Both the position numbers and the translations under genes were made by a program. From the NCBI GenBank assembly GCA_000004985.1, contig GG738871.1: a DNA stretch of 64,000 nucleotides; one strand, written 5' to 3'. Position 1 is the stretch's first letter. Each line of letters begins with the position of its first letter. The notes beneath the pieces were generated by a model, which made no database searches, was not told the origin of the DNA, and saw nothing but the letters and a program-made list of their open reading frames with translations. Source of the DNA: Naegleria gruberi (taxonomy: Eukaryota). Of the stretch, positions 1 through 57,103 are shown piece by piece.

Positions 1-1700
1 GCGGTCAATTCTGTGAAATTCCAAAATGTAATGGAACAATGCAAGGTGATAATTCAGTTTGCTCAGGACATGGTTCATGTGTTGGTGTTGACCTTTGTAA
101 TTGTAATTCAACTCACTGGGGAGGTAAATTCTGTGAAATTCCAAAATGTTTTGGAGTATTAGCCAATGAATCTAATGTTTGTTCAGGACATGGTTCGTGT
201 ATTGGTGCTGATTTGTGTTCCTGTAATTCCACATATTGGGGAGACGAGAACTGTCAAACAGCAAAATGTAATGGTATTTTAGCAACAGATGCAAGTGCTT
301 GTAATTATCAAGGAGTTTGTTCAGGAGCTGACTTGTGTGTTTGTAATTCAACATATGGCGGTCAATTTTGCCAAGTACCTAGATGCAATGGAACAATGCA
401 AGGTGATAATTCAGTATGTTCAGGACATGGTTCTTGTGTTGGTGTTGACAAATGTAATTGTAATTCAACATCACTGGGGAGGTCAATTCTGTGAAATTCC
501 AAAGTGTTTTGGAGTATTAGCCAATGAATCTAATGTTTGTTCAGGACATGGTTCGTGTATTGGTGCTGATTTGTGTTCCTGTAATTCCACATATTGGGGA
601 GATGAAAATTGTCAAACAGCAAAATGTAATGGTATTTTAGCTACTCAAACAAATAGTGTTTGTTATGGACATGGTTCTTGTGTAGATGCCGATGTTTGTA
701 ACTGTAATTCCACATATTGGGGTGGAGAATTCTGCAAATATCCAAAATGTTTTGGAATCTTATCCACAGAAGCAAATGCTTGTTCGGCACCAAACCAAGG
801 TTTATGTGTTGATGCAGACACTTGTGCTTGTAACTCAACTTATTGGGGAGATGAAAAGTGCCAAACATTCAAGTGTAACAATATTCTTTCCACGTCAGAC
901 TCTGTTTGTTATGGTCAAGGAGTGTGTGTAGCTGTAGATACTTGCGTTTGTAACTCAACATATGGAGGCCAATTTTGTCAAACACCAAAATGTAATGGTA
1001 CTTTGGCCGGGGATAACTTAGTATGTTCAGGACATGGTTCTTGTGATGGAGTTGACAAATGTAATTGTAATTCAACATATTGGGGAGGTCAATTCTGTGA
1101 AATTCCAAAATGTTTTGGAGTATTAGCCAATGAATCTAATGTTTGTTCAGGACATGGTTCATGTATTGGTGCTGATTTGTGTTCCTGTAATTCCACATAT
1201 TGGGGAGATGAAAATTGTCAAACAGCAAAATGTAATGGTATTCTGTCAACACAAACAAGTACTGTTTGCTACGGTCATGGTTCTTGTGTAGATGCCGATG
1301 TTTGTAATTGTAATTCCACATATTGGGGTGGAGAATTCTGCAAATATCCAAAATGTTTTGGAATCTTATCTACCGATTCTTCAACTTGTTCATTCCATGG
1401 CTTGTGTATTGATGCTGATTTGTGTTCATGTAACTCAACCCATTGGGGAGGTGAAAAGTGTGACATTCCAAAATGTAATGGAATTTTAGCAACAGATACA
1501 AATGTTTGTAATTATCAAGGAGTTTGTTCAGGAGCTGACTTGTGTGTTTGTAACTCAACATATGGAGGCCAATTTTGTCAAACACCAAAATGTAATGGTA
1601 CTTTAGCAGGTGATAGTTCAGTATGTTCAGGACATGGTTCATGTGACGGAGTTGACAAATGTACTTGCAACTCGACATATTGGGGAGGTCAATTCTGTCA
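1..1700 (+). repeat. Intragenic higher-order tandem repeat: a ~590-nt unit of six EGF modules, about 3 copies, near-identical at nucleotide level.
   Basis: Segments 110-270, 500-660 and 1090-1250 are almost identical (ggtcaattctgtgaaattccaaaatgttttggagtattagccaatgaatctaatgtttgttcaggacatggttc...). The block 1-360 recurs at 361-; protein blocks FCEIPKCFGVLANESNVCSGHGSCIGADLCSCNSTYWGDENCQTAKCNGIL recur three times. Confidence 0.7.
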
Positions 1701-4107
1701 AACTCCAAAATGTGATGGTATCTTAGCTTCCAATACTTCGACTTGTAATGGACAAGGTTCCTGTATCAATGCTGATGTTTGTATTTGTAATGATTACAAT
1801 CTTTGGGAAGGTAAATTCTGCCAAGTACCAATGTGTTACGGTAAACCACAAGGTGGATCTTCCACATGTAATAATGGAAATGGTACTTGTACATCTCCAA
1901 ATCACTGTTCCTGTAACTCTGGATATGTAGGCCCAGAATGTGAATATCCAGTTTGTTTCAATGTACCTAGCAATGACTCTTCAGTGTGTAACAATCGAAA
2001 CGGTACATGTATTTCACCTGATAAGTGTGCTTGTGAAAGTGGGTGGACTGGCGATAGTTGTCAAACACCAATCTGTTTCTCAATTTTGGGTAACTCTTCA
2101 GCTGTTTGTAGTCAAAGAGGTAGTTGTGTAGCTCCAAATTTTTGTGTTTGTAAGGATCATTATTATGGAGACGCATGTCAAAGAACTACTTGTTATGGTA
2201 TTGCTGATGATTCTAGTTCAACATGTTTTGGTCACGGTTCTTGTAGTGATTACAATACTTGTAATTGTTCATCAGGTTATGGTCCAGACAATTATTGTGA
2301 GCATCCAATATGTTATGGTTATTTAGCAAATGATACTAGAGTTTGTAACAATTCACGTGGTGTCTGTTTGAGTCCTGACGAATGTAGACCTTTGGACCCT
2401 GTATGTTTCGAAAAGGCAAAGAACGACAGTAATGTTTGCAGTGGTCATGGTAAATGTGTTGATTGGGATTATTGTGTTTGTAACACTTCAGATTATTATG
2501 GAGATCAATGTCAATATTGGAAATGTTTTACAAAGAATTACAACGCCTCAAATGTTTGTAATAACGGAAACGGTACCTGCTCATCTGTTAATAATTGTGT
2601 TTGCAACAGTGGATGGTATGGAAATGAATGTACAGTTCCAATGTGTAATGGAATTCTTGGTAATTCATCCCTCGTTTGTAACAATGGAAATGGTACCTGC
2701 TCCAAACCAGGTGCATGTCAATGTAATACTGGATATACAGGATCTGATTGTTCCATTCCAATTTGTTATGACAAATTAGCAAGTGACACAAGTAATGTTT
2801 GTTCAGGAAAGGGTTCTTGTGTTGCTAAGGATACTTGCTCTTGTCAAAACAAGTATACAGGTTATGAATGTCAATATGCCACATGTTATGGAGTTTCATC
2901 CAATTCTACAAGTGTCTGTAGTGGTAATGGTACATGTAACGGAGTTGATTCTTGTAATTGTTTATATGGTTATGGAGATTCTCAATGTAATGTTTTCAAA
3001 TGTTCCAATATTTTGGCTACTAGTAATAGCGTGTGTAGTGGAAGAGGTAAATGTTATGGAATTGATAAGTGTCAATGTGATACTGGTTACTATGGTCCTA
3101 ATTGTCAATATACCACTTGTAATGGTATTGCTGCTAACGACACTTCTGTATGTAATAGCAATGGTACCTGTACTGCTTATGAAACTTGTTCTTGCTCTGC
3201 TGATTGGTATGGCAAAAATTGTGACATTACTAAGTGTTACAATATCTTCTCAAATGATACAAGTGTTTGCAGTAGTAAGGGTAAATGTATCCTCAAGGAC
3301 AAGTGTGTCTGTACAGACATTAATTATGGTGGTTCTCAATGTGCCGATCCATACTGTTTTGGTTATTTGGCCGGAACTGTTGGAGTTTGTAGTGGAAATG
3401 GTCAATGTTTGGGAGTTAACTCTTGTAATTGTAATACTGGTTTCCTTGCCTCAAAGTGTCAATTCAAAACAATTAGTGGTATCTCTCTCACGTTCAATGC
3501 CTCTGCTGATTATGCCAATGAAACTCTCACCACCAAGGCAACTTTGTCAATTACTGACTCTTCATTCAGTACCTATTATGCTTCTACTAGCTTGAATGCT
3601 ACATTCTCATTTGTTTTCAATGGAGTTACATCAACATTCGACAAGATTCTCCCAGCCGGATCCAACAATGTTGAATTCATTCTTCCATTCTTCTACACTC
3701 AAAAAGGAACTGTTACCAGCTCTGTAACTCTCAAATTCACTGAAAGTACCACAACCATTACTGCAGGTCAAGCAACTGGTTCATCTTTAACCATTCAACA
3801 AAGAGTAATACCAACACCAACACCTACACCTATCAAATCATCACCAAAACCACAAGTTTCTCCAGCCAAATCCACCAACACTGTCAATCCAAAGGCCTCC
3901 ACTTCAACAACCACTAAGAGTGATTCCAATGTTGGAGGTGCCATTGCAGCTGGAGTCATTGTTCCATTAGTTGTAATTGGTGGAGGTGGTATCACTGCTG
4001 CCATCATTGCTGTTGTTGTCATTATGAAGAAGAAGGCCGCCACAGCAGCTGCCAGAGAACTTACCTATGCCACTCACTACGATGTTGAATTGGCTGAAGG
4101 TTACTGA
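1..4107 (+). CDS. EGF-like repeat type I membrane glycoprotein, family member C. 5-prime partial; enters the window in frame 3, shifts to frame 1 near 466-472, TGA stop at 4105-4107.
   Basis: About 35 tandem ~32-aa Cys-rich modules (CxxxGxCxxxDxCxCNSTYWGGxxCxxPKC, tenascin/EGF-like). They are followed by a ~170-aa Cys-free domain, a Thr/Pro-rich stalk, a hydrophobic helix GGAIAAGVIVPLVVIGGGGITAAIIAVVVI, and the tail KKKAATAAARELTYATHYDVELAEGY. The ORF 39..494 and the ORF 289..4107 are the same gene joined by a 1-nt insertion relative to sister repeat copies (compare 100-120 with 466-480). Confidence 0.75.
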
Positions 4108-27638: not shown

Positions 27639-30600
27639 ATGGTTACTGGAGGCAATCTTTCAGTATCTTGCTTTAAACAAGATGTAAAATCAGTTAGAGG
27701 CCTCATTGTCCTTCTCTTGTTGATTCTCTGTTTGACAACAATTGAGAAATGTTGTGGATATTACTACACAATGAATACTGTTGGTACCTTCACTTCTGGA
27801 ACCACCTTGTATCAAATGGACAAGTCCAAATTCTTCGCTAACAGATTCTACGTAGCAACAAGTGGAGGTCTTCAGTATTTCACTGTATCAAGTGGTGTGG
27901 CAAATCCAAGTAATTCTTATGTGTATAGTGGTGGGTTTCAAACTACCAGTATGGCAAATGTTGTTGTCAGAAGTACATCATCAAGTAAAGATGATGTTTT
28001 TTCTGGTACCATTAACACCTCCACTTGGAGGTATGGTTCAATAGCCAGTTCAACCACTACTGGTAATTCACTCACCAGTTGTGGCGTTATTGTTGCTGGT
28101 GTAAAACTCGATGCAAGCTCTACAACTTTTTCTGTGATTGGCAATGGTGTTGTGGGTACATTAACAATGACAACAGGTGGTAGTGCATCTTGTTCTGCAG
28201 TTACCTCATTTACAGGAGTTTCTGGCACAAGTACCACGCCATCTACTGATGGCACAGGTAGCGCAGCTACTGTTTACTCTAGTGGTACTCATGACATTAC
28301 CAAAAATTCAACATCTGGTGTAAGTATGAGAAAATTCAATTAATTAGATCTAACAACTGGCAGGTTTATTATTTTACTGAGGATTCAAAGATTAGAAAGG
28401 TTGTTTCAACTACTATCACAACTCTGGTAGGAGGAACTACTGGTACAGTGACAGATGGTACTCTCTCCTCTGCTACAGTTAAAAATCCAAGTTTCATGTC
28501 CATCTTGGGTGCAGGTGTAAGTTTTATTGCATTGTTATGATATATTAAACTGTTAACAGCTTGTATTTTCGGATACTGGTAGTAATAGAATTAGAGTTTT
28601 GGATACAGCCAATGAAGAAGTTGTTACTATTGCTGGTGGTGGCTCAACTACCCCATCAGGTACTGCTTCACTATCTGGTGCAGCAACAGGTTTTTCTTTA
28701 ACTAGCCCAAGAGGCATTTATGTGGACACTGATGACAGTATTTATTTTGTTGAAGGAATTTATGTTAGAAAGCTTGTCTATTCTTGTGAAGCAAATGAAA
28801 TTTATCAAGCAGGCTCATTCCCACCATGTGCTTGTAATACTACTGCTGGTTATGTGAGATCTGGAACTTCTTGCGTACCTACCTGTTCCAATTGTAATGT
28901 CAATCAAACATGTACTGGTCCAGAAACTTGTTCTTGTAAGAGTGGATATTCAGGAACAGATTGTTCTGCTTTTACCTGTTTTGGTGTAGCTCAAGATTCT
29001 ACATCTGTTTGTAATTCTAAAGGATATTGTGTTGCACCTGACACGTGTATATGTAGTGATACCTCCACTTTCTTTGGGTCAAATTGTAATGTGACTTATT
29101 GTAATTCTATTCCATCAACGAGTGGTAGTGTTTGTTCAGGACATGGAAGTTGTACTGATTATAATACTTGTACTTGTAGTGATACCAATTCATGGACAGG
29201 ATCTGATTGTGGAACACCTGTATGTGCAGTTGTGAGTGGAGGTGTTTGTTCTGGAAGAGGTAGTTGTACAGCTCCAAATATTTGCACTTGTAATGAACCA
29301 TCAAAATATGGTGGATCTTCATGTGAAATTCCAAAATGTAATGGAACACTTCAAGGCAATTCTGGTGTTTGCAATGGAAGAGGTTCTTGTATTGATGTTG
29401 ATACTTGTCAATGCACTGTTCCAACCTCTTGGGGTGGTTCATTCTGTGAAAAACCATACTGCTCTGGAATTTTACAAGGTGCAGCTGGTGTTTGTTCAAA
29501 TAGAGGAGTTTGTTCATCTCCTGATTCTTGTGTTTGTAATGAACAAACAAAGTATGGTGGTTCAAATTGTCAACTTGTCAAATGTGGAGGTTATTTGGAA
29601 ACAGACTCTGCTGTTTGTAACAAGAATGGTTCATGTATTGCTGTTGATACTTGTTCCTGTAATTCAAATTATGGTGGTTCAGATTGTCAATATCCAAAGT
29701 GTAATGGCATTGCTTCGAATAGTGGTAGTGTTTGTAATTCACAAGGATCATGTGTTGCACCAAATGTTTGTGTCTGTAATTCAAATTATGCTGGACCATT
29801 ATGCGAATATCCAAAATGTAATGGCGTAGCTTCCAATGATGCAAGTGTTTGCAATTCGAATGGAACTTGTACTGGTGTTAATACTTGTGTTTGTAATGTT
29901 AACTATACAGGATCATATTGTCAATATCCAAAATGTAATGGAATATCTTCCAATGATGCAAGTGTTTGTAATAACAAAGGTGGTAATTGTATTGCACCAA
30001 ATGTTTGTTCATGTAATTCAAGTTATACTGGTCAATTCTGTCAATTCCCAAAGTGTAATGGTATTGGATCCAATGATGCAAGTGTTTGTAATGCAAATGG
30101 TACTTGTATTGGAATTAATGTTTGTTCATGCAATTCAAATTATGCTGGTCCATATTGTCAATATCCAAAATGTAATGGTATTGCTTCAAATAGTGGTAGT
30201 GTTTGTAATTCACAAGGATCATGTGTTGCACCAAATGTTTGCGCCTGTAATTCAAATTATGCTGGTACATATTGTGATAAACCAAGATGTGGAACCTTTT
30301 ATAAGGGAGATGCTTCTGTTTGTAATTCGAGAGGTAGTTGTGATGCTGTTGATAGTTGTACTTGTAGTGATACATCTTCTTGGGGTGGTAATTTGTGTCA
30401 ATATCCAAAATGTAATGGTGTTCTTTCAAATATTGGAACTGTTTGTAGCAGTAGAGGTACTTGTCAATCTCCAAACAATTGTTCATGCACTGATCCAAAT
30501 TCATATGGTGGTTCATATTGTGAAAAAGCAAAATGTTATGGAATTCTTCAAGGAGATTCAAATGTTTGCAGTGGACATGGTACTTGTAGTGGTGTGAATC

Positions 30601-32542
30601 AATGTTCATGCAGTGCTGGATATGGAGGTGAACAATGTCAATATCCAAAATGTTTCAATATTTTGAGTAATGAAACAACAGTTTGTAACAATAGAAACGG
30701 TACTTGTACTGCACCTGACACTTGTTCATGTAATAATGGATGGACTGGAAGCAAGTGTGATGTTGCCATTTGTTTTTCAATTCTCTCCAATTCAACAAGT
30801 GTTTGTTCAAACAAGAGAGGTAATTGTGTCACACCAGATAATTGTGTTTGTAAAAGTCAATATTCAGGTTCTCAATGTGAATATACCACTTGTTCTGGAA
30901 TAAGATCAGATCAACATCGACAGTATGTTATGGAAATGGTCAATGTATTGATTATTTACTTGTAATTGTACAACTGGTTATGGACCATCCAATGTATGTC
31001 AATATCCAATTTGTGGTGGTTATTTAGCAAATGATACCAGAGTTTGTAACAATTCAAGAGGTGTTTGTTCCAAACCAAATACATGTAGACCATTAGATCC
31101 CGTATGTTATGGTAAAGCTCAGAATAATTCAATGGTTTGCAGTGGAAATGGAGCATGTGTTGATTGGGATTATTGTGAATGTAAAACTGGTTTCAATGGA
31201 AATGAATGTCAAAATTGGGAATGTTATGGAAAGAATTATACCAACTCAAATGTTTGTAACAATAGAAATGGTACCTGTTCATCTGTGAATAATTGTGTTT
31301 GCAACAGTGGATGGTATGGAAATGAATGTACAGTTCCAATGTGTAATGGAATTCTTGCTAATTCATCTCTCATTTGTAACAATAGAAATGGTACCTGCTC
31401 CAAACCAGGTGCATGTCAATGTAATACTGGATACACAGGACCTGATTGCTCCATTCCAATTTGTTATGGAAAATTAGGCAAGTGACACAAGTAATGTTTG
31501 TTCAGGAAGAGCAGAATGTATTGGTTATAACAAGTGTAATTGTGACACTTCCAAGTATAGTGGTTCACAATGTGAATATTTCAAATGTTTTGGTATTCCA
31601 TCAAATGATGCTTCAGTTTGCAGCAGAAACGGAACATGCTCTGGAGTGAATCAATGTTCTTGTAATTATGGTTATGGTTCTTCAAATTGTGACATTTTCA
31701 CATGTTCAAACGTTCTTGCCACCGATTCGAGTGTTTGCACTGGAAAGGGTGTATGTTATGGAATTGACAAGTGTTCATGTGATTCAGGATATTTTGGATC
31801 AAATTGTGAAATTATCTCCTGTTATGGAATTCCAAAGTCCAACAATACTGTATGTGGAGGAGTTGGTGAATGTTCACAACTTGATACATGTGTTTGTGGA
31901 AGCAATTATAGAGGATCAATGTGTGAATTATCTTACACCTCTTCATCTCAAGCAACACTTCAATTCAATAATACGAATGAATATGTGAATGAACAATTCA
32001 CAAGCATGGCCACTTTGACAATTAATAATCCTCTCTTCGGTCAATATTATTTGAGAAGAAGTGTTCAAGTTGTTGTTTCATTTGAAATTAATTCACAATT
32101 CAGTTATTCTGAAACACTTTATATTGAAAATGGAGTTTCATCTGTTTCATTAATGGTGAAATCGTTGAGTCAAACTGGTACATTGAAAGCATCTGCTCAA
32201 TTAATTGATAATAGTACATTAATTTCCATTTCAGATAGCATTCAATCTTCAAATAGCATTACAATTCAAAATAGACCTATTGTTGTTCCATCCACAACGA
32301 CATCCACAATCAAACCAACAACCTCTGCACAAACAAGTAGAGCTGTTATCGATACAGGAAGTAATGGTGGAGCCATTGCAGCTGGTATCATTGTTCCAGT
32401 GGCAGTTATTGGAATTGGAGGTGGTGTCACTGCAGCCATTGTCACAGCAGTTGTTTTGTTAAAGAAGAAGGCTGCTGCAGCTGCTGCCAAAGAAATTACA
32501 CATGCTCAACACGTCAATGTTGAACTAGCTGAAGGTTTCTAA
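27639..32542 (+). pseudogene. NHL-propeller/EGF-repeat membrane protein paralog A. Exons 27639..28319, 28364..28516 and 28560..32542; three frameshifting indels near 30913, 30956 and 31480 relative to paralog B.
   Basis: Same architecture as B (44914..49716). 28860-32542 is ~98% identical to 46030-49716 at nucleotide level, but reading requires frames 0, 1 and 2 (ORFs 28599..30965, 31132..31485, 31646..32542). Could be a recent pseudogene or assembly indels. Confidence 0.55.
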
Positions 32543-32791
32543 TCTTGTTGATAAAAATTCATTACTGCTTTCTCCAAAATATTTTCAATGAAGTCATAAA
32601 GTTGATTTCCAAAACCAATAACTTACATCTTGTATTAAACCTTTATCTTGTTAGAGTTGGCAACATAATGATTTTTCATATTTATTTGGATGTTGTTTTG
32701 TAAACACACTTGTCGAATCAATCCATTGATTTTTGACAAGATCAACACAGTAGTAGCCCGATTAGTCCCTCCATTTTCCATTATAAAAAAA

Positions 32792-34560
32792 ATGCAACAA
32801 CAACAACCTCGCTCAATGATGACATTCATCTTCCATTTCATAATGACAATATGTGTCGTCGTCGTATCATTGATGTTGAATCAAAGTGGTGGTGTAAACG
32901 GAGCAGTGTATCAAGTGAGTGATGCGGTTACTTTGTGGAATACCTTTTCTAAACTACAGGCTGGTATGTACAAGACTCATGACCTATTACATATTATTTA
33001 ACATGGAATGTGCTTGATGATCGGTTATTATTATGGTTGGTGTTGTTTCACATATTGTGTGTGTGGCGCTTGTAATCTTTGTTACTTACATGATTTGCAT
33101 GCTTTTCATAATATCCATGATTGTGTATTTTAAATTTGACTGTGCTCCATATGTTTGGCCAACTTGACAATACTTTTGTGTGAAATTGTGTGTGTGAAAT
33201 GGATGGGTTGTTTGGTGTTTTGATGCTTTTGGTGTTGGTTTTTTTTGCAGGTGATGAAATGGTTATTAGACAAGGAACTTATTCTACATCAACTGGTGGA
33301 TCCTATTATAGACAATTTACATTGAAAGGAACTGAAAGTCAACCAATTAGAGTTTATGCTTTGAAAAACGAAACTGTGGAAATTAAGGGAGATGCAGCTG
33401 GTAGTCAAAATATTCTCAATTTTGATGTTGAATATTTTGTGATGGATAATATTGGGTTCTCACAAGGTAGTCGTGGATTGAGATTTTTAAATTCGAAACA
33501 TTCAGTTTATTCTAATTTGAGAGTTAAAAACACAGGAGATGTTGGTATTGCCATGAATGACGGAAATGCTATTTATCAAAACAATACTTTAAGATATAAT
33601 GAAGTTTCGTATACTGGAGGAACTGGTGAATGTTTCTATTTGGGTTGTAACAATGCTGATTGCAAATTCATTTTCAATTTATTGGAAAATAACTATTGCC
33701 ACCACACATCTACCACCTCCCAAGGAGATGGTATTGAAATCAAAGCTGGAAGTTATGGAAATCTTGTCAGAAACAATGTCATTCATGATGGAAAGTATCC
33801 AGGCATTACCTTGTACAGCACTTATGTGTCTGGTGGTGATGCAGCTGTTGGTATTGCTAATCCAAATATTATTGAAGGAAATATCATTTGGACAGTCGTT
33901 GATAATGGTATACAAGTGACAGGTAATGCAATTATTAGAAATAACATTATTTATAATGCAGGTGCTAGTGGAATTGCCATTCAAGTCAATCAAGGAACTG
34001 TCGAAAATGTCAAAGTATTGCACAATACAGTTGTCAAAGCAGGTGCTGCTTGTATTAGAGTGACAAATTCAGGACCAGGAATTGTCATTGCTAATAATGC
34101 TGCCTATTGTGAAGCTACCAATTCAATTTATATTGCTGCTGCATTGCCTGCTGATGGTGTCATTTCAAGAAATGTCATTCAGGGATCGACTAATGTTCAA
34201 GTTGCGAATGGAACTCTCAATATTGGTAAATTCACAACTGATTTCCAAAGTACTAGCGCCTTGCCATATAATGTTTTCCCAGTTACTTCCAGTAATGTGC
34301 TTGGAAAGGCAGATTCAAAGTATGCAACCACTTATGATTTCAATTTTAATACTAGAAATGGACCAACTTATGACTGTGGTGCTTATCAAGCTAATGGAGC
34401 TACTTCAAATCCTGGTTGGATTCCAAAAGCTGGATTCAAGACAACCACAGCTCCTACACCTAATACATCTACTAAGACTAATGGTGCTGCTGTTGGAAGC
34501 TTTGTGTCAACTCTTGCACTTGTTTTCGTTGCACTTGTGGTAATGTTTACTTTGAATTAA
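32792..34560 (+). CDS. Secreted right-handed parallel beta-helix (pectin-lyase-fold, PbH1-repeat) protein with C-terminal hydrophobic GPI-signal-like tail. Exons 32792..32963 and 33251..34560; intron GTATGT...TTTTTTGCAG.
   Basis: Signal peptide MMTFIFHFIMTICVVVVSLML. Beta-helix rungs NNVIHDG, GNIIWTVVDNGIQVTGNAIIRNNIIYNAGASGIAIQVNQGTVENVKVLHNTVVKAGAACIRV, IANNAAY. Thr/Pro stalk, then terminal VSTLALVFVALVVMFTLN. Confidence 0.6.
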
Positions 34561-34798: not shown

Positions 34799-36712
34799 CT
34801 AATGTTGCAGGTAATCATGATGAACACGACCAGCAGGCATGATCATGTCAACCTTAAAGTTAAAGGCACCAACAACTTGCTTGACAGGGAGATCACTAAT
34901 TGGAGCGTTAACGTGAGGAATGAGTGCAAGCTTAGCATCTCCCTTATAGGCACTAGTTACATTTAGGTTGGCATGTTCCATTCTAACCAATTGAACAATA
35001 GCTGGATCACCACGAACGTCAGGAATATGCTTTAAGAATAATTGAGGAGTGGACAAGTAGGAAACGACATCTTCGAAAGCCATTCTTTCATACTTGTAGG
35101 ACATTGTACCAGTTGCAACTCTGCAACCATTGCAATCCAATGTACCCTTCAAAGTATCTTGAGTTGGAGCGAATGTAATACCATCACAGAACTTTTGAGG
35201 TAAACCAAGACATTCTCTACCATATGTAATTGGAGATGAAGAATCCAAGAAACTCATAGTGTTAAAGTGGATAGAGTTACCTTCGTTATCAGTACATGGA
35301 ACAATCAAGTCAACCTTGTAATAACTACCAATACCAGTACCATGAGTATTGACGAATTGAAGAATTACAATATTGTCTTCATTTGGAGTGAGTTGATCTG
35401 GAATCTTTTCCAACAAAGATTCTCTATCTGTTACATATTTGATAACCATGTATTCTCTGTCTTGGAGCTTTGAAGCAGATGGCTTATAGGATGGACATGT
35501 TACTGGCATTGCCAATGACTCTTCTGTAATTTTCTTTTCGGTAAAGATTGATCTGTATTGACCTGGTTGGACAAACATTTGGTGGAATTTTTGAGAAACA
35601 GCCTTATTTTCTTCAGTTGGTTCGAGATAATCATGCAAAACATTACCGTATGGCAACAAGATATCAGCCATCATGTGTTTACCTTGAATAACCTTCTTGA
35701 CAGGCAAATCAGCAACTGGTGCATTAACATTTTCAACCAAGTGCAATCTAGCTGGACCTTCAAAGGCAAAATGCAACTTTTTAACTTGCAAGTTATATGA
35801 AACAATTTGGGCAATCTTTGGCTTGAAATCAACATCAGGAATAATCTTCAAATTAATATTGGTCTTTCCCATTGATTTCAAAACAGTATCATGATCAAGT
35901 TCAGTGTGTTTGTAAGCCATTGTACCTTGAGCAACAGTTTCTCCCTTATATTTCATAACACCAACAACTGTATCTTGAATACATTTCATGGATGGGTGAG
36001 CATGTTTTTTCTAATTATATGACACAATTAATATTTCCATTTTGCTTCCGAGATTTAAAACTTACAGGAAAACCCCAAATTTCACGACCTTAATATTTAC
36101 AAGTTATTGACACAAATTAGATAATTGTTGAAATACTACTTACCAGCAGCAATTGGTGGTTCAATATCCAAATACATTTGGAGAGTAAGATTAACTGATT
36201 CTCCATTATAAGTGCAAGGAATGACAATACCTGATTCGGAATACTAACAATTAATTCATCATATATATTAAATTCTCAAAATCATTAATATCACTTACAG
36301 ATCCGAAACCAGAAGAGTCTGGCATGTTAATCCTTTAAAGAAGTTAATATCATTTCTGTAATTAAAAACACATACCATTCATACAATACATGACTATTTT
36401 CATTAGGGACAAGTGGTTCTGGAACCAAAGCACGAAGAGCTTCGGCATCAGTTTCATACGTAACAATAAAGTATTCTCTGTTCTTGAAAAAGTATGGTCC
36501 TAATATCAATATTATTGTAACCGATGAAAATATATGAAATAACAATGATGAATGATAACAAAGATGACAAACTTACCTCTCGGATAAGAAGGAGACATAA
36601 TAGGAGTAGAAGGTAATCCCAAAATCATATCCTTGGTAAATTTACCCTTCTCTTTACCTGGTTTAATAATTGATTTGAATGCTCTAGCAAAAACTGAAGG
36701 TGAAACTCTCAT
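34799..36712 (-). CDS. Tandem double acetoacetate decarboxylase-like (ADC/MppR family) protein. Five exons: 36577..36712, 36376..36499, 36300..36333, 36144..36243, 34799..36010. The start may instead be the upstream ATG at 36772.
   Basis: Domain 1 ([96 protein letters not shown]...DLPVKKV...DYL) aligns along its length with Clostridium ADC ([36 protein letters not shown]...NEPAIAVGRE...DLPVKEI). Domain 2 ([39 protein letters not shown]...DLPVKQV...DYLQH) is a second complete copy. Confidence 0.7.
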
Positions 36713-40022: not shown

Positions 40023-41446
40023 ATGACTCGATTCAAAAGATTTTCAATCTTTGGCTCAGGATCAAAGAGAAACACAACCCGAGGTTCGTATATCACTAAT
40101 TTCCATTCGCTCATGACGAATTAATTGCTTCATCTCTATTCATCATCATTAATTTCTCAACAATATTTCATTCCGATGATGATAATATATTTTTTATGAT
40201 GAAATAATATTTTGCTGATTCTGATTTTTTTAATGATGATGAATAATATTAATAATAATAATTAATTACAGATTTGTTGTCGGATGAAGAAAGATGGGCA
40301 CAAGAAGAGGAAGAAAAGAAGAAACTCCTTCAAGTATCATTAATACAAAACGAAGAGATGAAGAAGGATGTTGAAACATTGTTGGACAACAAGATGAGAA
40401 ATTGGGTGAATGCAACTGAAAAGAATAGATTGTATCAATCGATAGTGGTCGATAGTTTGAGTGAGGAAGAAAAGAATCATGTCAATTATTGTCGATCCAA
40501 GTATTTGAAATTGAAAAATCAGATACAAATTGGAAATGAAACAATTACAATACTGACACAGAATAGGACTGTGAGTGAGAGATTTTTCTACATGTTTTTC
40601 AATCCAAGTATTTTAGAGATACCTGTAGATTGGAAGGTTGGATTAAAACCATTCATGAAGATTAGATTATTGTTCACACCAGTTCAGGTTGGAGAGGTGA
40701 CTAATTTTCATGCCTTGCTGTTGGTTGGATGTTGGTGTTTGGAGTGGGATAAATCATCTTCTCTGGTGATTGTTAAACAGTTGGATATTACTAGAGTGTA
40801 TTTTGCTATTGATTTGGAGAGATTGACAAGTGAACAAGCTATTCATGAGTGCTTTAATAAGATTTCACAAGAGTGTTGTTTGTGGAATGGATCTAAGGAG
40901 TTCAATGCTAAATCTTGTAATAATCAACATTGTAAGTATATTGTGATGAACTTGTTTTAAAATGAATGAATATCTAATATGAATATATTCATAGTCATTC
41001 TTGCCTTGTTGGATAAATTGAAAATTTCACACAACTTGAAAGGATTATCAAAGATTTATTTTGACACATTGCTGGAAAATGGATCAAGTGCAATGACATT
41101 GAAATTATCGGATGAACTGAAAGAACTACTCAAGATTGATTCAATTACATTTAATACACATCAAGAATTGGACCAATTTACAAAAACAATACACGATTCG
41201 AATCCGTACTATTTTTCACAATACATTTCTGATGAATTGTTGTTGAAATGCTTTGATGAACAATTTTGGTATCTGAGAGATGCCAATGCCAACAATACAA
41301 ATGCTCCACTGATGGAAAATGAAGAATGTCAATGCTACTTTAACAAGAATCAAACTAATTATAACGAGTATGTCAATAAGGGAAAGACTGTAAATAATGT
41401 CTTTTGTTCAAGAAGTTTAATTCCACCAATGCCACTCAGATTTTAA
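40023..41446 (+). CDS. Protein of unknown function. Exons 40023..40083, 40272..40931 and 40995..41446.
   Basis: MTRFKRFSIFGSGSKRNTTR/DLLSDEERWAQEEEEKKKLL...SCNNQH/FILALLDKLKISHNLKGL... The splice sites (GTTCGT...CAG, GTAAGT...ATAG) restore a single frame across ORFs 40274..40960 and 40979..41446. No recognisable domain. Confidence 0.45.
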
Positions 41447-41574: not shown

Positions 41575-42765
41575 TTATTGCTTGTAGGTATCAACTGGCT
41601 TCTTATAGGTATCGACTGGCTTCTTGTAAGTGTCAACCTTCTTTGGTGGCTTATAAGTATCGGTCTTCTTTGGTGGCTTGTAGGTATCAACCTTAGTACA
41701 AACTCTCTTCTTCTTAGCACAGACACTCTTATCAGCGTGCTTTCTACAGACTCTCTTACCTCCAACAAAGTTGTACTTGACACAGATCTTTTGACCTGGT
41801 GACTTCTTGACACAATGCTTCTTGAATGATCTCTTAATACATCTTGGCTTCAATGTCTTGTATTGAGTACAATATGGCTTGGCAACATAGTCACAACAGA
41901 ACTTATCTTCTTTGTAAGCCTTACAAACTCTAACCTTTTCTTTGAGATCACAGAATTTGCTTGGAGTCCACTTGGTACAGAACTTGGTCTTTTGCTTGGC
42001 AACGCAATACTTTCTTTGGACAACCTTAACACATTTCTTTTCATAACCAATCTTCTTGGCAAACTTGACGTTTTCATATTTGGTACAGGTCTTCTTCTTG
42101 GCATATTCAACACAAATGGTACGATGCTTCTTTTCCAAAACTTGCTTATAGTAATGATCGATCCAACCCTTGTAATGTTTCTTACTGACTGGAACCCATT
42201 TAGCAACAGTTCTTGAGAGTTTCTTATATTTGGCACAATATTGATGAACAGAGTATTTGGCACATCTCTTCTTATGGAAATACTTAATCTTTGGAACGTA
42301 GGTTTCAGCAGCACATCTTGATGACTTGTCATACTTGGTACAAATGAAATGATAAGCATATTCATCACAAGCATTATTCTTTCCGTGGTGTTTGCACAAT
42401 TCCTTCCATTCATATTTGGCACAAATCTTGTGCTTAGTAACCTTTGAACAGAATTGCTTATAACCGTGACCCAAACAAATCTTTTCAGCTTTGCTGTACT
42501 TGTCACACTTGTGAGTCTTCTTATATTCCAAACATTTACCCTTTCCAACAGTCTTCCAATCGCAGCACTCTTTCTTGGTACCAACCCATTCATAATCAAC
42601 ACATTTACCTTGGATAGTCTTGTAGTGAGTACACTTGTTGTAGCAATACTCTTGATGATCAGAATAGGTATCAACCTTCTTGGAAGGAGCAGGAGCTGGG
42701 TTTGCAAGAACCATACTTGCTGCCAATACACTCAAAACGATTGCAATGATTATACTTGTTTTCAT
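41575..42765 (-). CDS. Secreted, highly basic Lys/Cys/Tyr-rich repeat protein with C-terminal KPPKK(T/V)DTY / KKPVDTY repeats.
   Basis: Signal peptide MKTSIIIAIVLSVLAASMVLA. More than 20 Cys in recurring (K/H)xC(x)KY motifs (CDKY, CAKY, CTKY, CVEY, CTQY). Tail is VDTYKPPKKTDTYKPPKKVDTYKKPVDTYKKPVDTYKQ. Single 396-aa ORF. Confidence 0.6.
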   Translation of the reverse strand: MKTSIIIAIVLSVLAASMVLANPAPAPSKKVDTYSDHQEYCYNKCTHYKTIQGKCVDYEWVGTKKECCDWKTVGKGKCLEYKKTHKCDKYSKAEKICLGHGYKQFCSKVTKHKICAKYEWKELCKHHGKNNACDEYAYHFICTKYDKSSRCAAETYVPKIKYFHKKRCAKYSVHQYCAKYKKLSRTVAKWVPVSKKHYKGWIDHYYKQVLEKKHRTICVEYAKKKTCTKYENVKFAKKIGYEKKCVKVVQRKYCVAKQKTKFCTKWTPSKFCDLKEKVRVCKAYKEDKFCCDYVAKPYCTQYKTLKPRCIKRSFKKHCVKKSPGQKICVKYNFVGGKRVCRKHADKSVCAKKKRVCTKVDTYKPPKKTDTYKPPKKVDTYKKPVDTYKKPVDTYKQ

Positions 42766-44913: not shown

Positions 44914-47900
44914 ATGAAACTAGTGAGCTTTCCCTATCATTTGTTGATTGCTGCTTGTGTAGTGTTACTTCTTGGCAAAGTTAGTGCATGGAGATATTCT
45001 GTGAAAACTCTTGCTACAGGTCTAGGCAGTATTTCTCAAATTGTTGGCTCTCCAAAATATATTTATGTTACACTTGGCTCCAGTTCAAAGAAGATTTATG
45101 CCTACGATAGACAATTATTGGCCACTCAGTCTGTACAAACATTGCAACAAGTCCACGATATAACAGCATCATCAAACAATATTGGTTATATTGCTTATCA
45201 TGGCAATGATTCGAATGACGCTGAAGTGATATCAGTAGCTGGCAATAATTTTCCAAACAATGTGGGTTTGTACTGGTTTACATGCTCATCAACCTGTTCC
45301 ACTCCAACACCCTTCTCTTATAATATAAGGGTCTCAGGAATTAGATCCCTAGGAATTGAGAACTCAACTCCCAAACTTTACATAACAAGACAAACAGCAA
45401 TTTACACTGGCACTCCTTCAGCAAATGCTATTGTATCAACAACTGGAACAATCAATTTTAAAGCTTTCAATGATGTTGATTATATTGGCAATACAGTAAG
45501 TTTTAATTATTTTGCAAATAGGTAACATTGGTTTAGGTTTATTTTACTGACTCAGGTGGAAACCTAAAAATTGCAACAAGTTCAACACCATTAATCAGTG
45601 TAGGCACATTTAGTGATGGTGCCAGTGGTACTGCTCGTTTATCTTCAGGCACAACATTCATCTCTGCACAGTTCAATAAGGTATGTAGTTATGAACAATA
45701 TGTTGTTGGAATAATTTTAAAAGATTTTTATCTCAGACACTGGAAACAGTAGAATTAGACTTTATGATATTGCTACAGGAATTACAACTACAATAGCTGG
45801 TGATCCTTCTAAATCAACAGCTGGAACAACAACTTTCAGTTTATCCGACGTACCAACTAATTACAAATTCACACCAACAGGTATTTGGATTGATAACTCT
45901 AATGGTATCATTTATTTTGCAGACACCAGTACCTTGAGAGCTTTAGTTCCAACTTGTAACAGTACTACAGAAGATCAATCTTCAACTTACCCTTTCTGTA
46001 CTTGTAAAACTGGATATTCATTGGTAAATGGAGATTGTGTTGCATCCACTAGTTGTTCTCCAGGATTGTGTAATGACAATCAAACATGTACTGGCCCAGA
46101 AACTTGTTCTTGTAAGAGTGGATATTATGGAACAAATTGTGATAATTATGACTGTTATGGAACTCAGAAGGATAATCTTTCTGTATGTAATGGAAAAGGT
46201 GTTTGCGTTTCTCCAAACACGTGTATTTGCACCAATGCAAACTATGATGGCTTTAATTGTAATATTACAACTTGTAATTCTATTCCATCAACGAGTGGTA
46301 GTGTTTGTTCTGGACATGGAAGTTGTACTGATTATAATACTTGTGCTTGTAGTGATACCAATTCATGGACAGGATCTGATTGTGGAACACCTGTATGTGC
46401 AGCTGTGAGTGGAGGTGTTTGTTCTGGAAGAGGTAGTTGTACAGCTCCAAATATTTGTACTTGTAATGAACCATCAAAATATGGTGGATCTTCATGTGAA
46501 ATTCCAAAATGTAATGGAACACTTCAAGGCAATTCTGGTGTTTGCAATGGAAGAGGTTCTTGTATTGATGTTGATACTTGTCAATGCACTGTTCCAACCT
46601 CTTGGGGTGGTTCATTCTGTGAAAAACCATACTGCTCTGGAATTTTACAAGGTGCAGCTGGTGTTTGTTCAAATAGAGGTGTTTGTTCATCTCCTGATTC
46701 TTGTGTTTGTAATGAACAAACAAAGTATGGTGGTTCAAATTGTCAACTTGTTAAATGTGGAGGTTATTTAGAAACAGACTCTGCTGTTTGTAACAAGAAT
46801 GGTTCATGTATTGCTGTTGATACTTGTTCCTGTAATTCAAATTATGATGGCCAATTTTGTCAATATCCAAAATGTAATGGCATTGCTTCAAATAGTGGTA
46901 GTGTTTGTAATTCACAAGGATCATGTGTTGCACCAAATGTCTGCTCTTGTTTCACAAATTATGCTGGACCATTATGCGAATATCCAAAATGTAATGGCGT
47001 AGCTTCCAATGATGCAAGTGTTTGTAGCTCGAATGGTACCTGTACTGGTGTTAATACTTGTGTTTGTAATGTTAACTATACAGGATCATATTGTCAATAT
47101 CCAAAATGTAATGGAATATCTTCAAACGATGCAAGTGTCTGTAATAACAAAGGTGGTAATTGTATTGCACCAAATGTTTGTTCATGTAATTCAAGTTATA
47201 CTGGTCAATTCTGTCAATTCCCAAAGTGTAATGGTATTGGATCCAATGATGCAAGTGTTTGTAGTGCAAATGGTACTTGTATTGGAATTAATATTTGTTC
47301 ATGCAATTCAAATTATGCTGGTCCATATTGTCAGTATCCAAAATGTAATGGCATTGCTTCAAATAGTGGTAGTGTTTGTAATTCACAAGGATCATGTGTT
47401 GCACCAAATGTTTGCGCCTGTAATTCAAATTATGGTGGTACATATTGTGATAAACCAAGATGTGGAACCTTTTACAAGGGAGATGCTTCTGTTTGTAATT
47501 CGAGAGGTAGTTGTGATGCTGTTGATAGTTGTACTTGTAGTGATACTTCTTCTTGGGGTGGCAATTTGTGTCAATATCCAAAATGTAATGGTGTTCTTTC
47601 AAATATTGGAACTGTTTGTAGCAGTAGAGGTACTTGTCAATCTCCAAACAATTGTTCATGCACTGATCCAAATTCATATGGTGGTTCATATTGTGAAAAA
47701 GCAAAATGTTATGGAATTCTTCAAGGAGATTCAAATGTTTGTAGTGGACATGGTACTTGTAGTGGTGTGAATCAATGTTCATGTAGTGCTGGATATGGAG
47801 GTGAACAATGTCAATATCCAAAATGTTTCAATATTTTGAGTAATGAAACAACAGTTTGTAACAATAGAAACGGTACTTGTACTGCTCCTGACACTTGTTC

Positions 47901-49716
47901 ATGTAAAAATGGATGGACTGGAAGCAAGTGTGATGTTGCCATTTGTTATTCAATTCTCTCCAATTCAACAAGTGTTTGTTCAAACAAGAGAGGTAATTGT
48001 GTCACACCAGATAATTGTGTTTGTAAAAGTCAATATTCAGGTTCTCAATGTGAATATACCACTTGTTCTGGAATAAGATCAGATCAAACATCGACAGTAT
48101 GTTATGGAAATGGTCAATGTATTGATTATAATACTTGTAATTGTACAACTGGTTATGGACCATCCAATGTATGTCAATATCCAATTTGTGGTGGTTATTT
48201 AGCAAATGATGCCAGAGTTTGTAACAATTCAAGAGGTGTTTGTTCCAAACCAAATACATGTAGACCATTAGATCCCGTATGTTATGGTAAAGCTCAGAAT
48301 AATTCAATGGTTTGCAGTGGAAATGGAGCATGCGTTGATTGGGATTATTGTGAATGTAAAACTGGTTTCAATGGAAATGAATGTCAAAATTGGGAATGTT
48401 ATGGAAAGAATTATACCAACTCAAATGTCTGTAACAATGGAAATGGTACCTGTTCATCTGTGAATAATTGTGTTTGTAACAGTGGATGGTATGGAAACGA
48501 ATGTACAGTTCCAATGTGTAATGGAATTCTTGGCAATTCATCTCTCGTTTGTAACAATAGAAATGGTACCTGCTCCAAACCAGGTGCATGTCAATGTAAT
48601 ACTGGATACACAGGACCTGATTGCTCCATTCCAATTTGTTATGGAAAATTAGGCACTGATACAAGTAATGTTTGTTCAGGAAGAGCAGAATGTATTGGTT
48701 ATAACAAGTGTAATTGTGACACTTCCAAGTATAGTGGTTCACAATGTGAATATTTCAAATGTTTTGGTATTCCATCAAATGATGCTTCAGTTTGCAGCAG
48801 AAACGGAACATGCTCTGGAGTGAATCAATGTTCTTGTAATTATGGTTATGGTTCTTCAAATTGTGACACTTTCACATGTTCAAATGTTCTTGCCACCAAT
48901 TCAAGTGTTTGCAGTGGAAAGGGTGTATGTTATGGAATTGACAAGTGTTCATGTGATTCAGGATATTTCAGTACCAATTGCGAGCTATTTTCTTGTTATG
49001 GAATTCCAAAGTCCAACAATACTGTATGTGGAGGAGTTGGTGAATGTTCACAACTTGATACATGTGTTTGTGGAAGCAATTATAGAGGATCAATGTGTGA
49101 ATTATCTTACACCTCTTCATCTCAAGCAACACTTCAATTCAATAATACGAATGAATATGTGAATGAACAATTCACAAGCATGGCCACTTTGACAATTAAT
49201 AATCCTCTCTTCGGTCAATATTATTTGAGAAGAAGTGTTCAAGTTGTTGTTTCATTCCAAATTAATTCACAATTCAGTTATTCTGAAACACTTTATATTG
49301 AAAATGGAGTTTCATCTGTTTCATTAATGGTGAAATCATTGAGTCAAACTGGTACATTGAAAGCATCTGCTCAATTAATTGATAATAGTACATTGATTTC
49401 CATTTCAGATAGTATTCAATCTTCAAATAGCATTACAATTCAAAATAGACCTATTGTTGTTCCATCCACAAAGACATCCACAACCAAACCAACAACCTCT
49501 GCACAAACAAGTAGAGCTGTTATCGATACAGGAAGTAATGGTGGAGCCATTGCAGCTGGTATCATTGTTCCAGTGGCAGTTATTGGAATTGGAGGTGGTG
49601 TCACTGCAGCCATTGTCACAGCAGTTGTTTTATTAAAGAAGAAGGCTGCTGCAGCTGCTGCCAAAGAAATTGCACATGCCCAACACGTCAATGTTGAACT
49701 AGCTGAAGGTTTCTAA
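44914..49716 (+). CDS. NHL-propeller/EGF-repeat type I membrane glycoprotein, paralog B (intact). Exons 44914..45495, 45546..45680 and 45724..49716.
   Basis: Signal peptide MKLVSFPYHLLIAACVVLLLGKVSA. NHL-like blades (VYFTDSGGNLKIA; IFISDTGNSRIRLYDIATGITTTIAG; GIWIDNSNGIIYFADTSTL). About 35 EGF/tenascin-like Cys modules, a Cys-free ~170-aa domain, Ser/Thr stalk, helix GGAIAAGIIVPVAVIGIGGGVTAAIVTAVVLL, and tail KKKAAAAAAKEIAHAQHVNVELAEGF. Introns GTAAGT...TTTAG and GTATGT...AAAAG. Confidence 0.8.
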
Positions 49717-49863
49717 TTGTTCATTATGATAGTTTGTCAATAATAAACTTTAAATTTTGATGTTTAGTGAAATGATGCTCAATTATTTAAATGGTTCGTA
49801 ATTGTCTCTCCTAACAAAATAGAAACTACAACCAAATCACAGGGCATCACAACACAAAATAAA

Positions 49864-55635: not shown

Positions 55636-57103
55636 TTATAGAAAATCATTTTCCTCTAAGGCACAAGGTGCTGCGTCTTCGGCAATGTGAATATGAGACT
55701 TTCCTCCAGGTCCATTCAGTTGCATCTTATTTCCACAAATTGTTGATGTCTTGGTTGATTCCAAAACAATGGCATTTCTGGTGTGTCCACTAAAGACACT
55801 TCTCTCAATTCTCATAGAGGCCTCACCTTTGCAGAGAATGGCATTTCCATCATTCTTTTGAAAGAGACTTTTGGTTACTTCACACAGAGTGTCATCTTCG
55901 AGTCGCATTCCATGAAGTTTGTTAAATTCCACGTGGCACTCGGTCATGATTAATTTGGGAGGATCACAAATTGGTTTCTTACTACCAGTCGATGGCAGTG
56001 GCGGTGGAGGTGGTTGAGTGTTTGATTCAATTGATGCTGTCGAAGGAGTTGTAGAAACTGCTGCATCAGTTGTGTTTTTCACAGGTGGAATGTATAATCT
56101 ATTCTTTACAGTAACACCAACTCCATAACTTGCTCTCAAATGGACATGTTGCAGAGTGCATGATCCTGAAACAATTTCCAAACACGACGCCGATTCATAA
56201 AATAAAATACTATCCCTAGCAGCATTCTGTGTGAGTGTGACATGTTCAAATTTGACACTTCCCCCACCATCCAATAAACGTTGTTTTTCCAATTGTTGAA
56301 TTGTTAAATTCTCATTAAAAGAGTCCACTCTCAAAATTGATTTTGAGCTATCCGAAGAGGCAATATGTACAAGTGATGAATCTGGATAAACTCCACGAAT
56401 GGTGAGTGGTTTCTTAATGACAACTGTTTCAGGAACTTTGTAAATTCCACTTCTCAAAACAACATGGTCTCCCTCCTTTGCAAAATCAACAGCTCTCTGT
56501 ATATCATGAAAAGTACAATCTTCACTAAAATCTGGATCAACTACATGAAGTCTGTAATCTGAATTCCTAACAGATGAATCATTAATTTCCTTTATCCAAT
56601 TGCTTTGGTCATTTTCATCCTCACAAGCAAGATAATAAGTACGATGAGGTGAAATGATTTTAATACCAAATTTCTTTTTGTAATTCAATTCGGCTGCTTG
56701 ACAAGTTAATCCCTGAACATTAATCATTCCTTTGGGTTTGGTATCTTTCTGTGATACATAGTAATATAATTTTCCTCTATTTTTTAAATTATTAATAAGT
56801 ATTGTAGGTTAAAGATGAGAATATAGTATTCGAAACACATACTGATGCAAAATACATAATCTCTCGTGCCATGTTTTAATGGAACCTCCTCGTTTGGTCT
56901 ATTCATTTCAAATATATTATGAAAATGTATAACGGTTATTATTATTGAAATTGTTCCGAATACAAATTGTTTCGAATAAAACCTACCAGTGTTCCTACAA
57001 AGTCGTGGTCTCTCATCAATTCAGAAGCAGATACTTTGGGTGGTTCCTCCACTATCTCCTTCCACTTCTTACCAGCCTTCTTTACTTTATCTTGTGATGA
57101 CAT
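55636..57103 (-). CDS. PH-domain protein with C-terminal right-handed beta-helix (PbH1/CASH-like) domain. Exons 56987..57103, 56843..56898 and 55636..56776.
   Basis: MSSQDKVKKAGKKWKEIVEEPPKVSASELMRDHDFVGTL/TKRGGSIKTWHERLCILHQ/GKLYYVSQKDTKPKGMINVQGLTCQAAELNYKKKFGIKIISPHRTYYLACEDENDQSNWIKEIN is a complete PH domain split by two introns (88 and 66 nt). Then repetitive beta-helix rungs and a Pro-rich linker PPPPPLP. Confidence 0.65.

Follow-up and report, generated by a model that had tools for sequence, protein, structure and literature searches.

A mirror-symmetric cysteine lattice in a predicted secreted, Lys-rich protein of Naegleria gruberi suggests a long disulfide-stapled hairpin

In a 64,000-nucleotide stretch of Naegleria gruberi DNA (contig GG738871.1 of assembly GCA_000004985.1; the whole stretch is hereafter called the window), we analyzed an open reading frame (ORF) of 396 codons whose product, the focal protein, carries 32 Cys residues in two halves that are mirror images of each other. 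The most likely fold of this chain, as judged from the Cys pattern and from structure prediction, is a single, very long hairpin held together by some 15 disulfide bridges. Four observations point to such a cross-strand disulfide ladder: the mirror symmetry of the Cys lattice, the conservation of this lattice, compensating insertions and deletions among homologs, and a hairpin predicted by AlphaFold2 (AF2). The protein is tentatively considered here as an extracellular structural or adhesive component.

A mirror-symmetric cysteine lattice

The 32 Cys residues occupy a nine-residue lattice with the consensus C-[TVDA]-K-Y-x-K-x-K-[FIY]. Seventeen pairs of Cys are separated by exactly nine residues, compared with 2.6 +/- 1.5 in shuffled sequences, and none of the 5000 shuffles reached 17. 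The Cys regularity of the focal protein is not due to chance. A first-pass annotation, made from the DNA sequence of the window, had pointed to KxC(x)KY motifs in this protein. These do recur (four exact occurrences of the pattern K.C.{0,2}KY), and a looser form is commoner, with Lys at +2 of 15/32 Cys and Tyr at +3 of 15/32, but the strict nine-residue lattice and its symmetry had been overlooked.

The N-half and the C-half, with 16 Cys each, mirror each other about residue ~198. When the Cys of the two halves (positions x and y) are joined outward from this center, they form nested pairs, and in 15/16 cases x+y equals 395-397: 14 pairs fall within +/-1 of one mirror sum, and 41-356 (sum 397) is the 15th. 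The inner pairs are 177-218, 168-227, 151-245, 142-254, 133-263, 124-272, 115-281 and 106-290, and the outer pairs are 97-299, 87-309, 78-318, 67/68-328, 55-340, 45-349 and 41-356. The irregular gaps of the lattice (17/18, 10, 10 and 12/13) are also mirrored, and when the order of gaps was shuffled, 14 pairs were reached in 1 of 5000 trials. Gly and Pro positions follow the same symmetry in the focal sequence (G73/G75 with G323, G128 with P268, and WVG at 60-62 with VGG at 334-336). We considered the possibility that the halves arose by tandem (direct) duplication. Duplication of one half should give translational symmetry, whereas mirror symmetry was seen; translational matching recovered only the trivial nine-residue lattice, and the irregular gaps matched in mirror order. 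A duplication origin was therefore rejected.

Compensating changes among homologs

The lengths of the N-side and C-side segments between successive rungs were compared in an alignment of 16 sequences. In Naegleria members, all rung intervals but one are fixed; the one that varies, 97-106|290-299, is 5/9 in N. gruberi P0010 and 9/9 in the others. In divergent members, intervals that are 9/9 in the focal protein were changed on both sides: 124-133|263-272 is 11/11 in P0020, 168-177|218-227 is 12/12 in P0019 and P0020, and 142-151|245-254 reads 17/24 (P0007) or 15/21 (P0017). Cys residues were likewise gained or lost in mirrored pairs. Four members have one additional Cys on each side within interval 151-168|227-245, and the number of Cys inward of rung 142-254 is 3+3, 5+5 or 6+6, depending on the member. 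The tip region carries 2+2 added Cys in P0006/P0010, P0007 and P0017, and more in P0019/P0020. In a nested ladder, a gain of 3+3 Cys would only bring extra rungs; local pairing of neighboring Cys could accommodate it only by re-pairing of the whole chain.

The complete order of Cys gaps (4,10,12,1,10,9,10,9x6,17,9,41,9,18,9x5,1,8,10,9,10,12,9,7) is the same in the focal protein and in P0015, P0014, P0002, P0012 and P0004. The position of the CC doublet differs among family members. Several members have an odd number of mature Cys (35 or 37), and such molecules are therefore likely to retain one or more free thiols. Some of them form a second Naegleria subfamily, here called type B (P0006, P0010, P0036 and L003-L005), with 35 mature Cys, one CC doublet and four extra Cys near the tip; here, too, the odd count implies a free thiol. 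The type B tail has a single VDKY plus a Lys-rich stretch instead of KPPKKVDTY repeats.

Predicted structure and the ladder model

With 6 sequences, AF2 gave no useful model (predicted local distance difference test, pLDDT, 44), and this run was set aside in favor of one with 16 aligned sequences, in which model numbering is protein numbering minus 1. This run gave a mean pLDDT of 71.9, with 273 residues at 70 or higher, five concordant models spanning 60.9-71.9, and a predicted template modeling score (pTM) of 0.21. The model is all-beta and essentially one hairpin, with strands at 39-195 and 201-356 (model numbering). The turn occupies model residues 196-200 (protein 197-201), at the Cys mirror center of ~198, and four breaks in the strands are mirrored as well (61-62/334-335, 73-76/321-323, 90-92/305-307 and 127-133/265-270). 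The low pTM fits a long segmented rod in which the angles between segments are undefined. With regard to the composition of the ribbon faces and the types of cross-strand pairs, both faces were mixed, with no clear pattern or amphipathicity.

If the ladder is correct, the core (aa 41-356) would be composed of about 30 nonapeptide units of the form C-x-K-Y-x-K-x-K-hydrophobic, with a single fold-back at aa ~197-201, and the N- and C-halves would run antiparallel as a long two-stranded beta-ribbon. The two strands would be joined by about 15 disulfides, formed in the secretory pathway and spaced nine residues apart (C177-C218, C168-C227, C151-C245 ... C41-C356), and one Cys of each CC doublet (67/68 and 290/291) would be surplus to the ladder. 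Beta-strands usually rise ~3.3 A per residue; at this rise and with ~155 residues per strand, we estimate that such a cystine-ladder rod would measure tens of nm if extended. It would be interrupted by four mirrored Gly/Pro kinks, probably giving five segments. Both flexible Tyr/Lys/Pro tails, with their K-P-x-D-T-Y motifs, would be located at the open end of the rod, and the conserved aromatic loop KHYKGWIDHYY would cap the opposite end. The Cys knots suggested in the first-pass annotation are probably the wrong picture, as the evidence favors nested cross-strand disulfides. The segments of the gene and of its product are listed in Table 1.

Table 1. Features of the focal gene and of its predicted product, in window coordinates
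Feature	Position	Strand	Basis
Complete single-exon gene, 396 codons + TAA stop	41575..42765	(-)	ORF list; sequence; full-length collinear homologs of 367-396 aa
Predicted signal peptide, aa 1-21 MKTSIIIAIVLSVLAASMVLA, cleavage after VLA	42703..42765	(-)	Sole hydrophobic segment; equivalent N-termini in all full-length homologs
N-terminal tail, aa 22-40 NPAPAPSKKVDTYSDHQEY, one KKVDTY motif	42646..42702	(-)	Sequence; AF2 pLDDT <50
N-strand of predicted hairpin, aa 41-177, 16 Cys including CC doublet 67/68	42235..42645	(-)	Cys spacing; mirror pairing with aa 218-356; AF2
Cys-free tip of predicted hairpin, aa 178-217, aromatic turn KHYKGWIDHYY	42115..42234	(-)	41-residue Cys gap; AF2 turn at mirror center
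C-strand of predicted hairpin, aa 218-356, 16 Cys including CC doublet 290/291	41698..42114	(-)	Cys spacing; mirror pairing; interval alignment; AF2
C-terminal Tyr/Lys/Pro repeat tail, aa 357-396, five x-D-T-Y units	41578..41697	(-)	Sequence; AF2 pLDDT <50

Composition, signal peptide and tails

The focal protein (396 aa) contains 91 Lys (23.0%; 24% of the mature chain), 34 Tyr (8.6%) and 32 Cys (8.1%). The very high content of these residues had been noticed in the first-pass annotation, where Lys was put slightly too high, at ~25%. Both the Lys and the Tyr content are the highest among 30 long ORFs of the window, the others having 3-16% Lys and 0-7.7% Tyr. The mature protein would have 375 aa, a mass of 44.5 kDa, an isoelectric point (pI) of 9.7 and a net charge of about +69, and it contains no N-glycosylation sequon.

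The N-terminal sequence MKTSIIIAIVLSVLAASMVLA, which is followed by NP, has a charged n-region (MK), a 17-residue hydrophobic core, Val at -3 and Ala at -1. The signal peptide was called by rule of thumb (n/h/c regions and -3/-1 residues), not by a trained predictor. Kyte-Doolittle hydrophobicity averaged over 19 residues has its maximum of 2.5 in the signal region and is at most -0.14 elsewhere, leaving no further transmembrane segment, and neither a membrane anchor nor a glycosylphosphatidylinositol (GPI)-type C-terminus was seen in the focal protein. Since a signal-like N-terminus occurs in all full-length members, the Cys count is even and conserved, and no other hydrophobic segment is present, the focal protein looks secreted, judging from its sequence.

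The C-terminus reads TKVDTY-KPPKKTDTY-KPPKKVDTY-KKPVDTY-KKPVDTY-KQ, and a sixth unit, KKVDTY, follows the signal peptide. The C-terminal Pro/Lys/Tyr repeats reported earlier are thus present as five x-D-T-Y units, but their spacings of 9, 9, 7 and 7 agree only in part with the description "heptad-like". In the DNA, Tandem Repeats Finder detected a 21-bp period, repeated 2.7 times, at 41581-41637. The N-terminal tail motif, K-P/K-x-D-[TS]-Y, is retained at the same position in homologs. The copy number of the tail repeats differs among homologs and paralogs, from about 5 down to 1.

A conserved gene and a narrow family

The focal ORF is a genuine, conserved Naegleria gene. It starts with ATG at 42765-42763 and ends with TAA at 41577-41575. 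The ratio of nonsynonymous to synonymous substitution rates (dN/dS) relative to an 87%-identical homolog is 0.175, with dS of 0.47, indicating purifying selection. Codon usage in this gene is more biased than anywhere else in the window (GC content at third codon positions 0.43, AAG 81%, CCA 13/15, AGA 10/11), which may point to high expression during some stage.

Full-length homologs aligned over 92-97% of the query with E-values of 1.9e-228 to 3.9e-133; shorter or partial matches covered 68-91%. All named matches are annotated as predicted or hypothetical proteins of Naegleria, and the remaining matches are metagenome sequences. The named relatives are NAEGRDRAFT_74241 (87% identity), NAEGRDRAFT_71888, NAEGRDRAFT_64508 and NAEGRDRAFT_48501 in N. 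gruberi, FDP41_004030 and FDP41_003065 in N. fowleri, and C9374_000273 and C9374_012983 in N. lovaniensis. Several paralogs occur per Naegleria genome, with two to three in N. fowleri. The Naegleria relatives are 47-87% identical to the focal protein over its full length and share with it a 32-Cys or 35-Cys lattice, the signal peptide and, at each end, a K-x-D-x-Y motif. None of them is identical to it (the closest is a metagenome protein with 96% identity, followed by NAEGRDRAFT_74241), and the numbers of tail repeats differ.

A scan of 1.84 billion representative sequences with a profile of the family yielded only 22 proteins, mostly fragments or metagenome sequences. Two of these, P0033 and P0034, were discarded as spurious: they come from translated nine-residue repeats of the FCGALTPHQ type, each with one Cys, that are unrelated to the family. 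They indicate that the profile is sensitive to any nine-residue Cys lattice, so weak matches should be treated with caution. A profile built from a narrower alignment added three further type B genes from one JGI metagenome. The family is so far confined to Naegleria and a few metagenome sequences, presumably from related protists.

In Pfam, the focal protein matched no family at E<=10, including EGF-like, Dicty_CTDC, oocyst-wall and other Cys-repeat hidden Markov models (HMMs), whereas the neighboring EGF-repeat genes matched strongly. A search of PDB with the family sequence profile gave no match, and Pfam gave none with the distant members P0017, P0019, P0027 and P0029. The locus tags and the UniProt and GenBank accessions of the family were not mentioned in the searchable literature or supplements. 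Secretion and the lack of a characterized homolog, as given in the first-pass annotation, are supported by the signal-like N-terminus, which all full-length homologs share, and by these searches. Of the two findings that would have spoken against the annotation, homology to a characterized intracellular family was not seen, and absence of a signal peptide does not apply, as the signal-like peptide is present.

Several of the more distant proteins have features of their own. P0019 (713 aa; L001 3836-5977, an ENA metagenome contig) contains the ladder domain at aa ~374-711, which is not Lys-rich and has the 12/12 compensating indel; its N-terminal region differs and consists of Cys-rich repeats of ~40 residues with no Pfam match. 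P0029, a metagenome protein of 2774 aa, has long arrays of a different nine-residue Cys repeat (CSSFITSST / CFDYATLAA); it is not rich in Lys, matches no Pfam family, and shows that the nine-residue Cys period recurs outside the focal family. The SAM and PB1 domains of P0026 were set aside, as they look like a gene-calling fusion.

Possible function

The first-pass annotation, from composition, had likened the protein to cross-linked wall, matrix or adhesive proteins or to cationic antimicrobial proteins. For a secreted polycationic cystine-ladder rod, the likeliest role would be structural or adhesive and extracellular; the protein would most likely be a strut in the wall of the cyst or in the cell-surface matrix. 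We favor this proposal tentatively, at a little short of an even chance. It is based on predicted secretion, the predicted rigid, disulfide-stapled repetitive core, the Pro-Lys-Tyr tails, the spare cysteines, the variable copy number of the tail repeats and the codon bias. It also draws on the K-P-x-D-x-Y motifs that recur within loops and insertions of the distant members P0007 and P0017. The Lys surface of the rod would bind anionic polymers, and the rod would be fixed in position by its Tyr/Lys tails (via oxidative Tyr or quinone-Lys cross-links) and by spare cysteines (via intermolecular disulfides), for which the free thiol of the 35- and 37-Cys members would be suited. Pro-Lys-Tyr repeats in plant proline-rich wall proteins and in mussel Mfp-1 serve oxidative cross-linking and adhesion, and proteins with periodic Cys build apicomplexan oocyst walls.

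Several points weigh against this proposal. The AF2 hairpin comes from a shallow alignment (the 16 sequences mentioned above) and has a pTM of 0.21. An isolated two-stranded ribbon with ~155 residues per strand would be physically unusual, and it may fold at the kinks or pack laterally. The ladder model leaves over two Cys (67 or 68, and 290 or 291). The most distant members, P0019 and P0020, are not rich in Lys, and the polycationic character may be lineage-specific. In addition, literature searches found no expression, localization or functional data for the family.

The main rival to a structural or adhesive role is that of an antibacterial or bacteria-binding polycation, i.e., a giant analog of cationic cystine-ladder hairpin peptides that a bacterivorous amoeba would secrete or deliver to phagosomes. 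Predicted secretion, the net charge of +69 and the pI of 9.7 would suit such a protein, and a cross-strand cystine ladder on a beta-hairpin, as predicted here, is the design of tachyplesin, protegrin, gomesin and theta-defensin. The presence of several paralogs per genome suits an effector family, and the only partial matches in fold are hairpins that pore-forming toxins insert into membranes. However, the large size, the absence of an amphipathic face, the presence of tails and the existence of non-cationic distant members argue against this role, and we consider it unlikely. The absence of the focal protein from the searchable N. fowleri extracellular vesicle (EV) and trophozoite secretome tables is weak evidence here, since a protein with 24% Lys gives very short tryptic peptides.

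A different possibility concerns the fold itself. The lattice could form local C-x8-C loops, or a beta-solenoid or beta-roll with 18 residues per turn, as in RTX-like proteins, with disulfides between neighboring Cys and with mirror symmetry as a by-product. Palindromy is trivial for the regular part of any periodic lattice, RTX proteins are known to form beta-rolls from nine-residue repeats, P0029 has a nine-residue Cys period without an obvious two-half layout, and the confidence of AF2 is based on 16 sequences. On the other hand, symmetry extends to the irregular gaps, which chance arrangement matched in one of 5000 shuffles. Three independent indel events were each matched by a compensating change in the mirrored interval, which in two cases had the same length, and Cys were gained one per side of the center, including an odd number (3+3) that would force local pairs to be completely rearranged. 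The AF2 turn lies exactly at the mirror center, the RTX consensus GGxGxDxUx is absent from the sequence, and there is no Pfam match. With these observations, we regard a fold other than the ladder as rather improbable.

We give similarly little weight to the idea that the protein acts in trophozoites rather than in the cyst wall, as a substrate adhesive or surface coat, that is, a secreted polycationic glue for anionic substrata and prey. In composition (Lys, Tyr, Cys and Pro-Lys-Tyr repeats), its nearest counterparts are mussel Mfp-1 and Mfp-6, and the codon bias suggests high expression. Against this stand the lack of a membrane anchor or GPI-type C-terminus and, as weak evidence, its absence from the searchable trophozoite secretome and EV tables. 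Finally, the protein might not be secreted at all and might be an intracellular Lys-rich protein, e.g., one that binds nucleic acids, as very high Lys and pI are typical of such binders, with the N-terminal hydrophobic stretch not being a signal peptide; this is very improbable, as the signal-like N-terminus is kept despite sequence divergence, 32 invariantly spaced Cys are implausible in a reducing compartment, and Pfam gave zero families of any kind at E<=10.

If the cystine-ladder rod exists as proposed, it would be a simple, one-chain route to a long, stiff, protease- and heat-resistant rod of almost purely periodic sequence, which would be of interest for research on folds and biomaterials. 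For Naegleria, including the pathogen N. fowleri, the family offers a concrete candidate for an extracellular structural component, and the resistance of cysts matters for water disinfection; literature searches brought up no cyst-wall proteome of Naegleria. Should the protein instead be an antibacterial polycation, the cystine-ladder hairpin design would be extended to an unprecedented size class.

Genomic context

The window DNA is AT-rich (GC 31-38%), and its long ORFs encode proteins typical of eukaryotes, such as calpain, protein kinase, TCP-1, RING finger, ZIP and EGF-repeat proteins. A search of the window with the focal protein (tblastn) returned only the self-match. An equally long ORF (396 aa) at 34799-35989 (-) was considered as a possible paralog and rejected; it encodes an unrelated protein of the acetoacetate decarboxylase family, with two matched stretches.

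The focal gene is located between the two copies of a 3.65-kb segmental duplication with 96% identity (28893-32543 and 46069-49717). Both copies contain a gene of the teneurin-like EGF-repeat type (ORFs 28599-30965 plus 31646-32542, and 45934-49716), and a third EGF-repeat gene is present at 289-4107. Right-handed beta-helix regions (Pfam Beta_helix/NosD) were found in ORFs 33190-34560 (+) and 55636-56727 (-), together with part of a PH domain in the second. Two adjacent ORFs that lie closely downstream of the focal gene, 40274-40960 and 40979-41446 (+), have no Pfam match and may be exons of one gene.

Comparison with known systems

The focal protein belongs solely to its own uncharacterized family. 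It can be likened to hairpin peptides, to periodic-Cys wall proteins and to Pro-Lys-Tyr proteins, and it is a member of none of these groups, since at least one defining feature of each (size, HMM match or repeat array) is missing.

Tachyplesin, protegrin, gomesin and theta-defensin have in common with the focal protein a single antiparallel hairpin, disulfide rungs (both predicted in the focal protein) and strong cationic charge. However, peptides of the tachyplesin type have 17-25 residues, with 2-3 rungs that are 2-4 residues apart, and are amphipathic, whereas the focal protein, with a mature length of 375 aa, would have about 315 structured residues and about 15 predicted rungs nine residues apart, and it shows no sequence homology to them.

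A second comparison is with adhesive and wall proteins rich in Tyr and Lys. Mussel Mfp-1 is built of the decapeptide AKPSYPPTYK, Mfp-6 is rich in Cys, Tyr and Lys, and repetitive proline-rich wall proteins of plants contain PPVYK repeats. Like these, the focal protein is basic, is predicted to be secreted and has short Pro-Lys-Tyr repeats, and the combination of Cys with Tyr and Lys is shared with Mfp-6. In contrast to the long arrays of Mfp-1 and the plant proteins, it has only five terminal repeats and a Cys-lattice core, and no homology to them was found among the matches. Literature searches on cyst-wall chemistry and on dityrosine in Naegleria gave nothing relevant.

Disulfide-cross-linked wall material is also formed by the oocyst wall proteins of Cryptosporidium and Toxoplasma, and by EcmA/B (24-residue Cys repeats) and the spore-coat proteins of Dictyostelium. 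These proteins resemble the focal protein in secretion, which is predicted for the latter, and in short repeats and regularly spaced Cys, but their repeat lengths and Cys patterns differ, and none of their Pfam models matches it. We know of no mirror-symmetric, two-half layout in the oocyst-wall, EcmA/B or spore-coat families.

The only solved structures returned by a fold search were the stem hairpins or tail knobs of lysenin, aerolysin, anthrax PA and phi29 gp9, which contain long, isolated-looking two-stranded beta-hairpins. The architecture predicted by our model has no counterpart among solved structures and is apparently undescribed. That it is a single-chain two-stranded ribbon with ~15 rungs, one every nine residues, forming a polycationic nanorod with cross-linkable Tyr/Lys/Pro tails at one end, and that this nanorod serves as a wall or matrix strut in Naegleria and related amoebae, is a possibility that we put forward well short of calling it probable.

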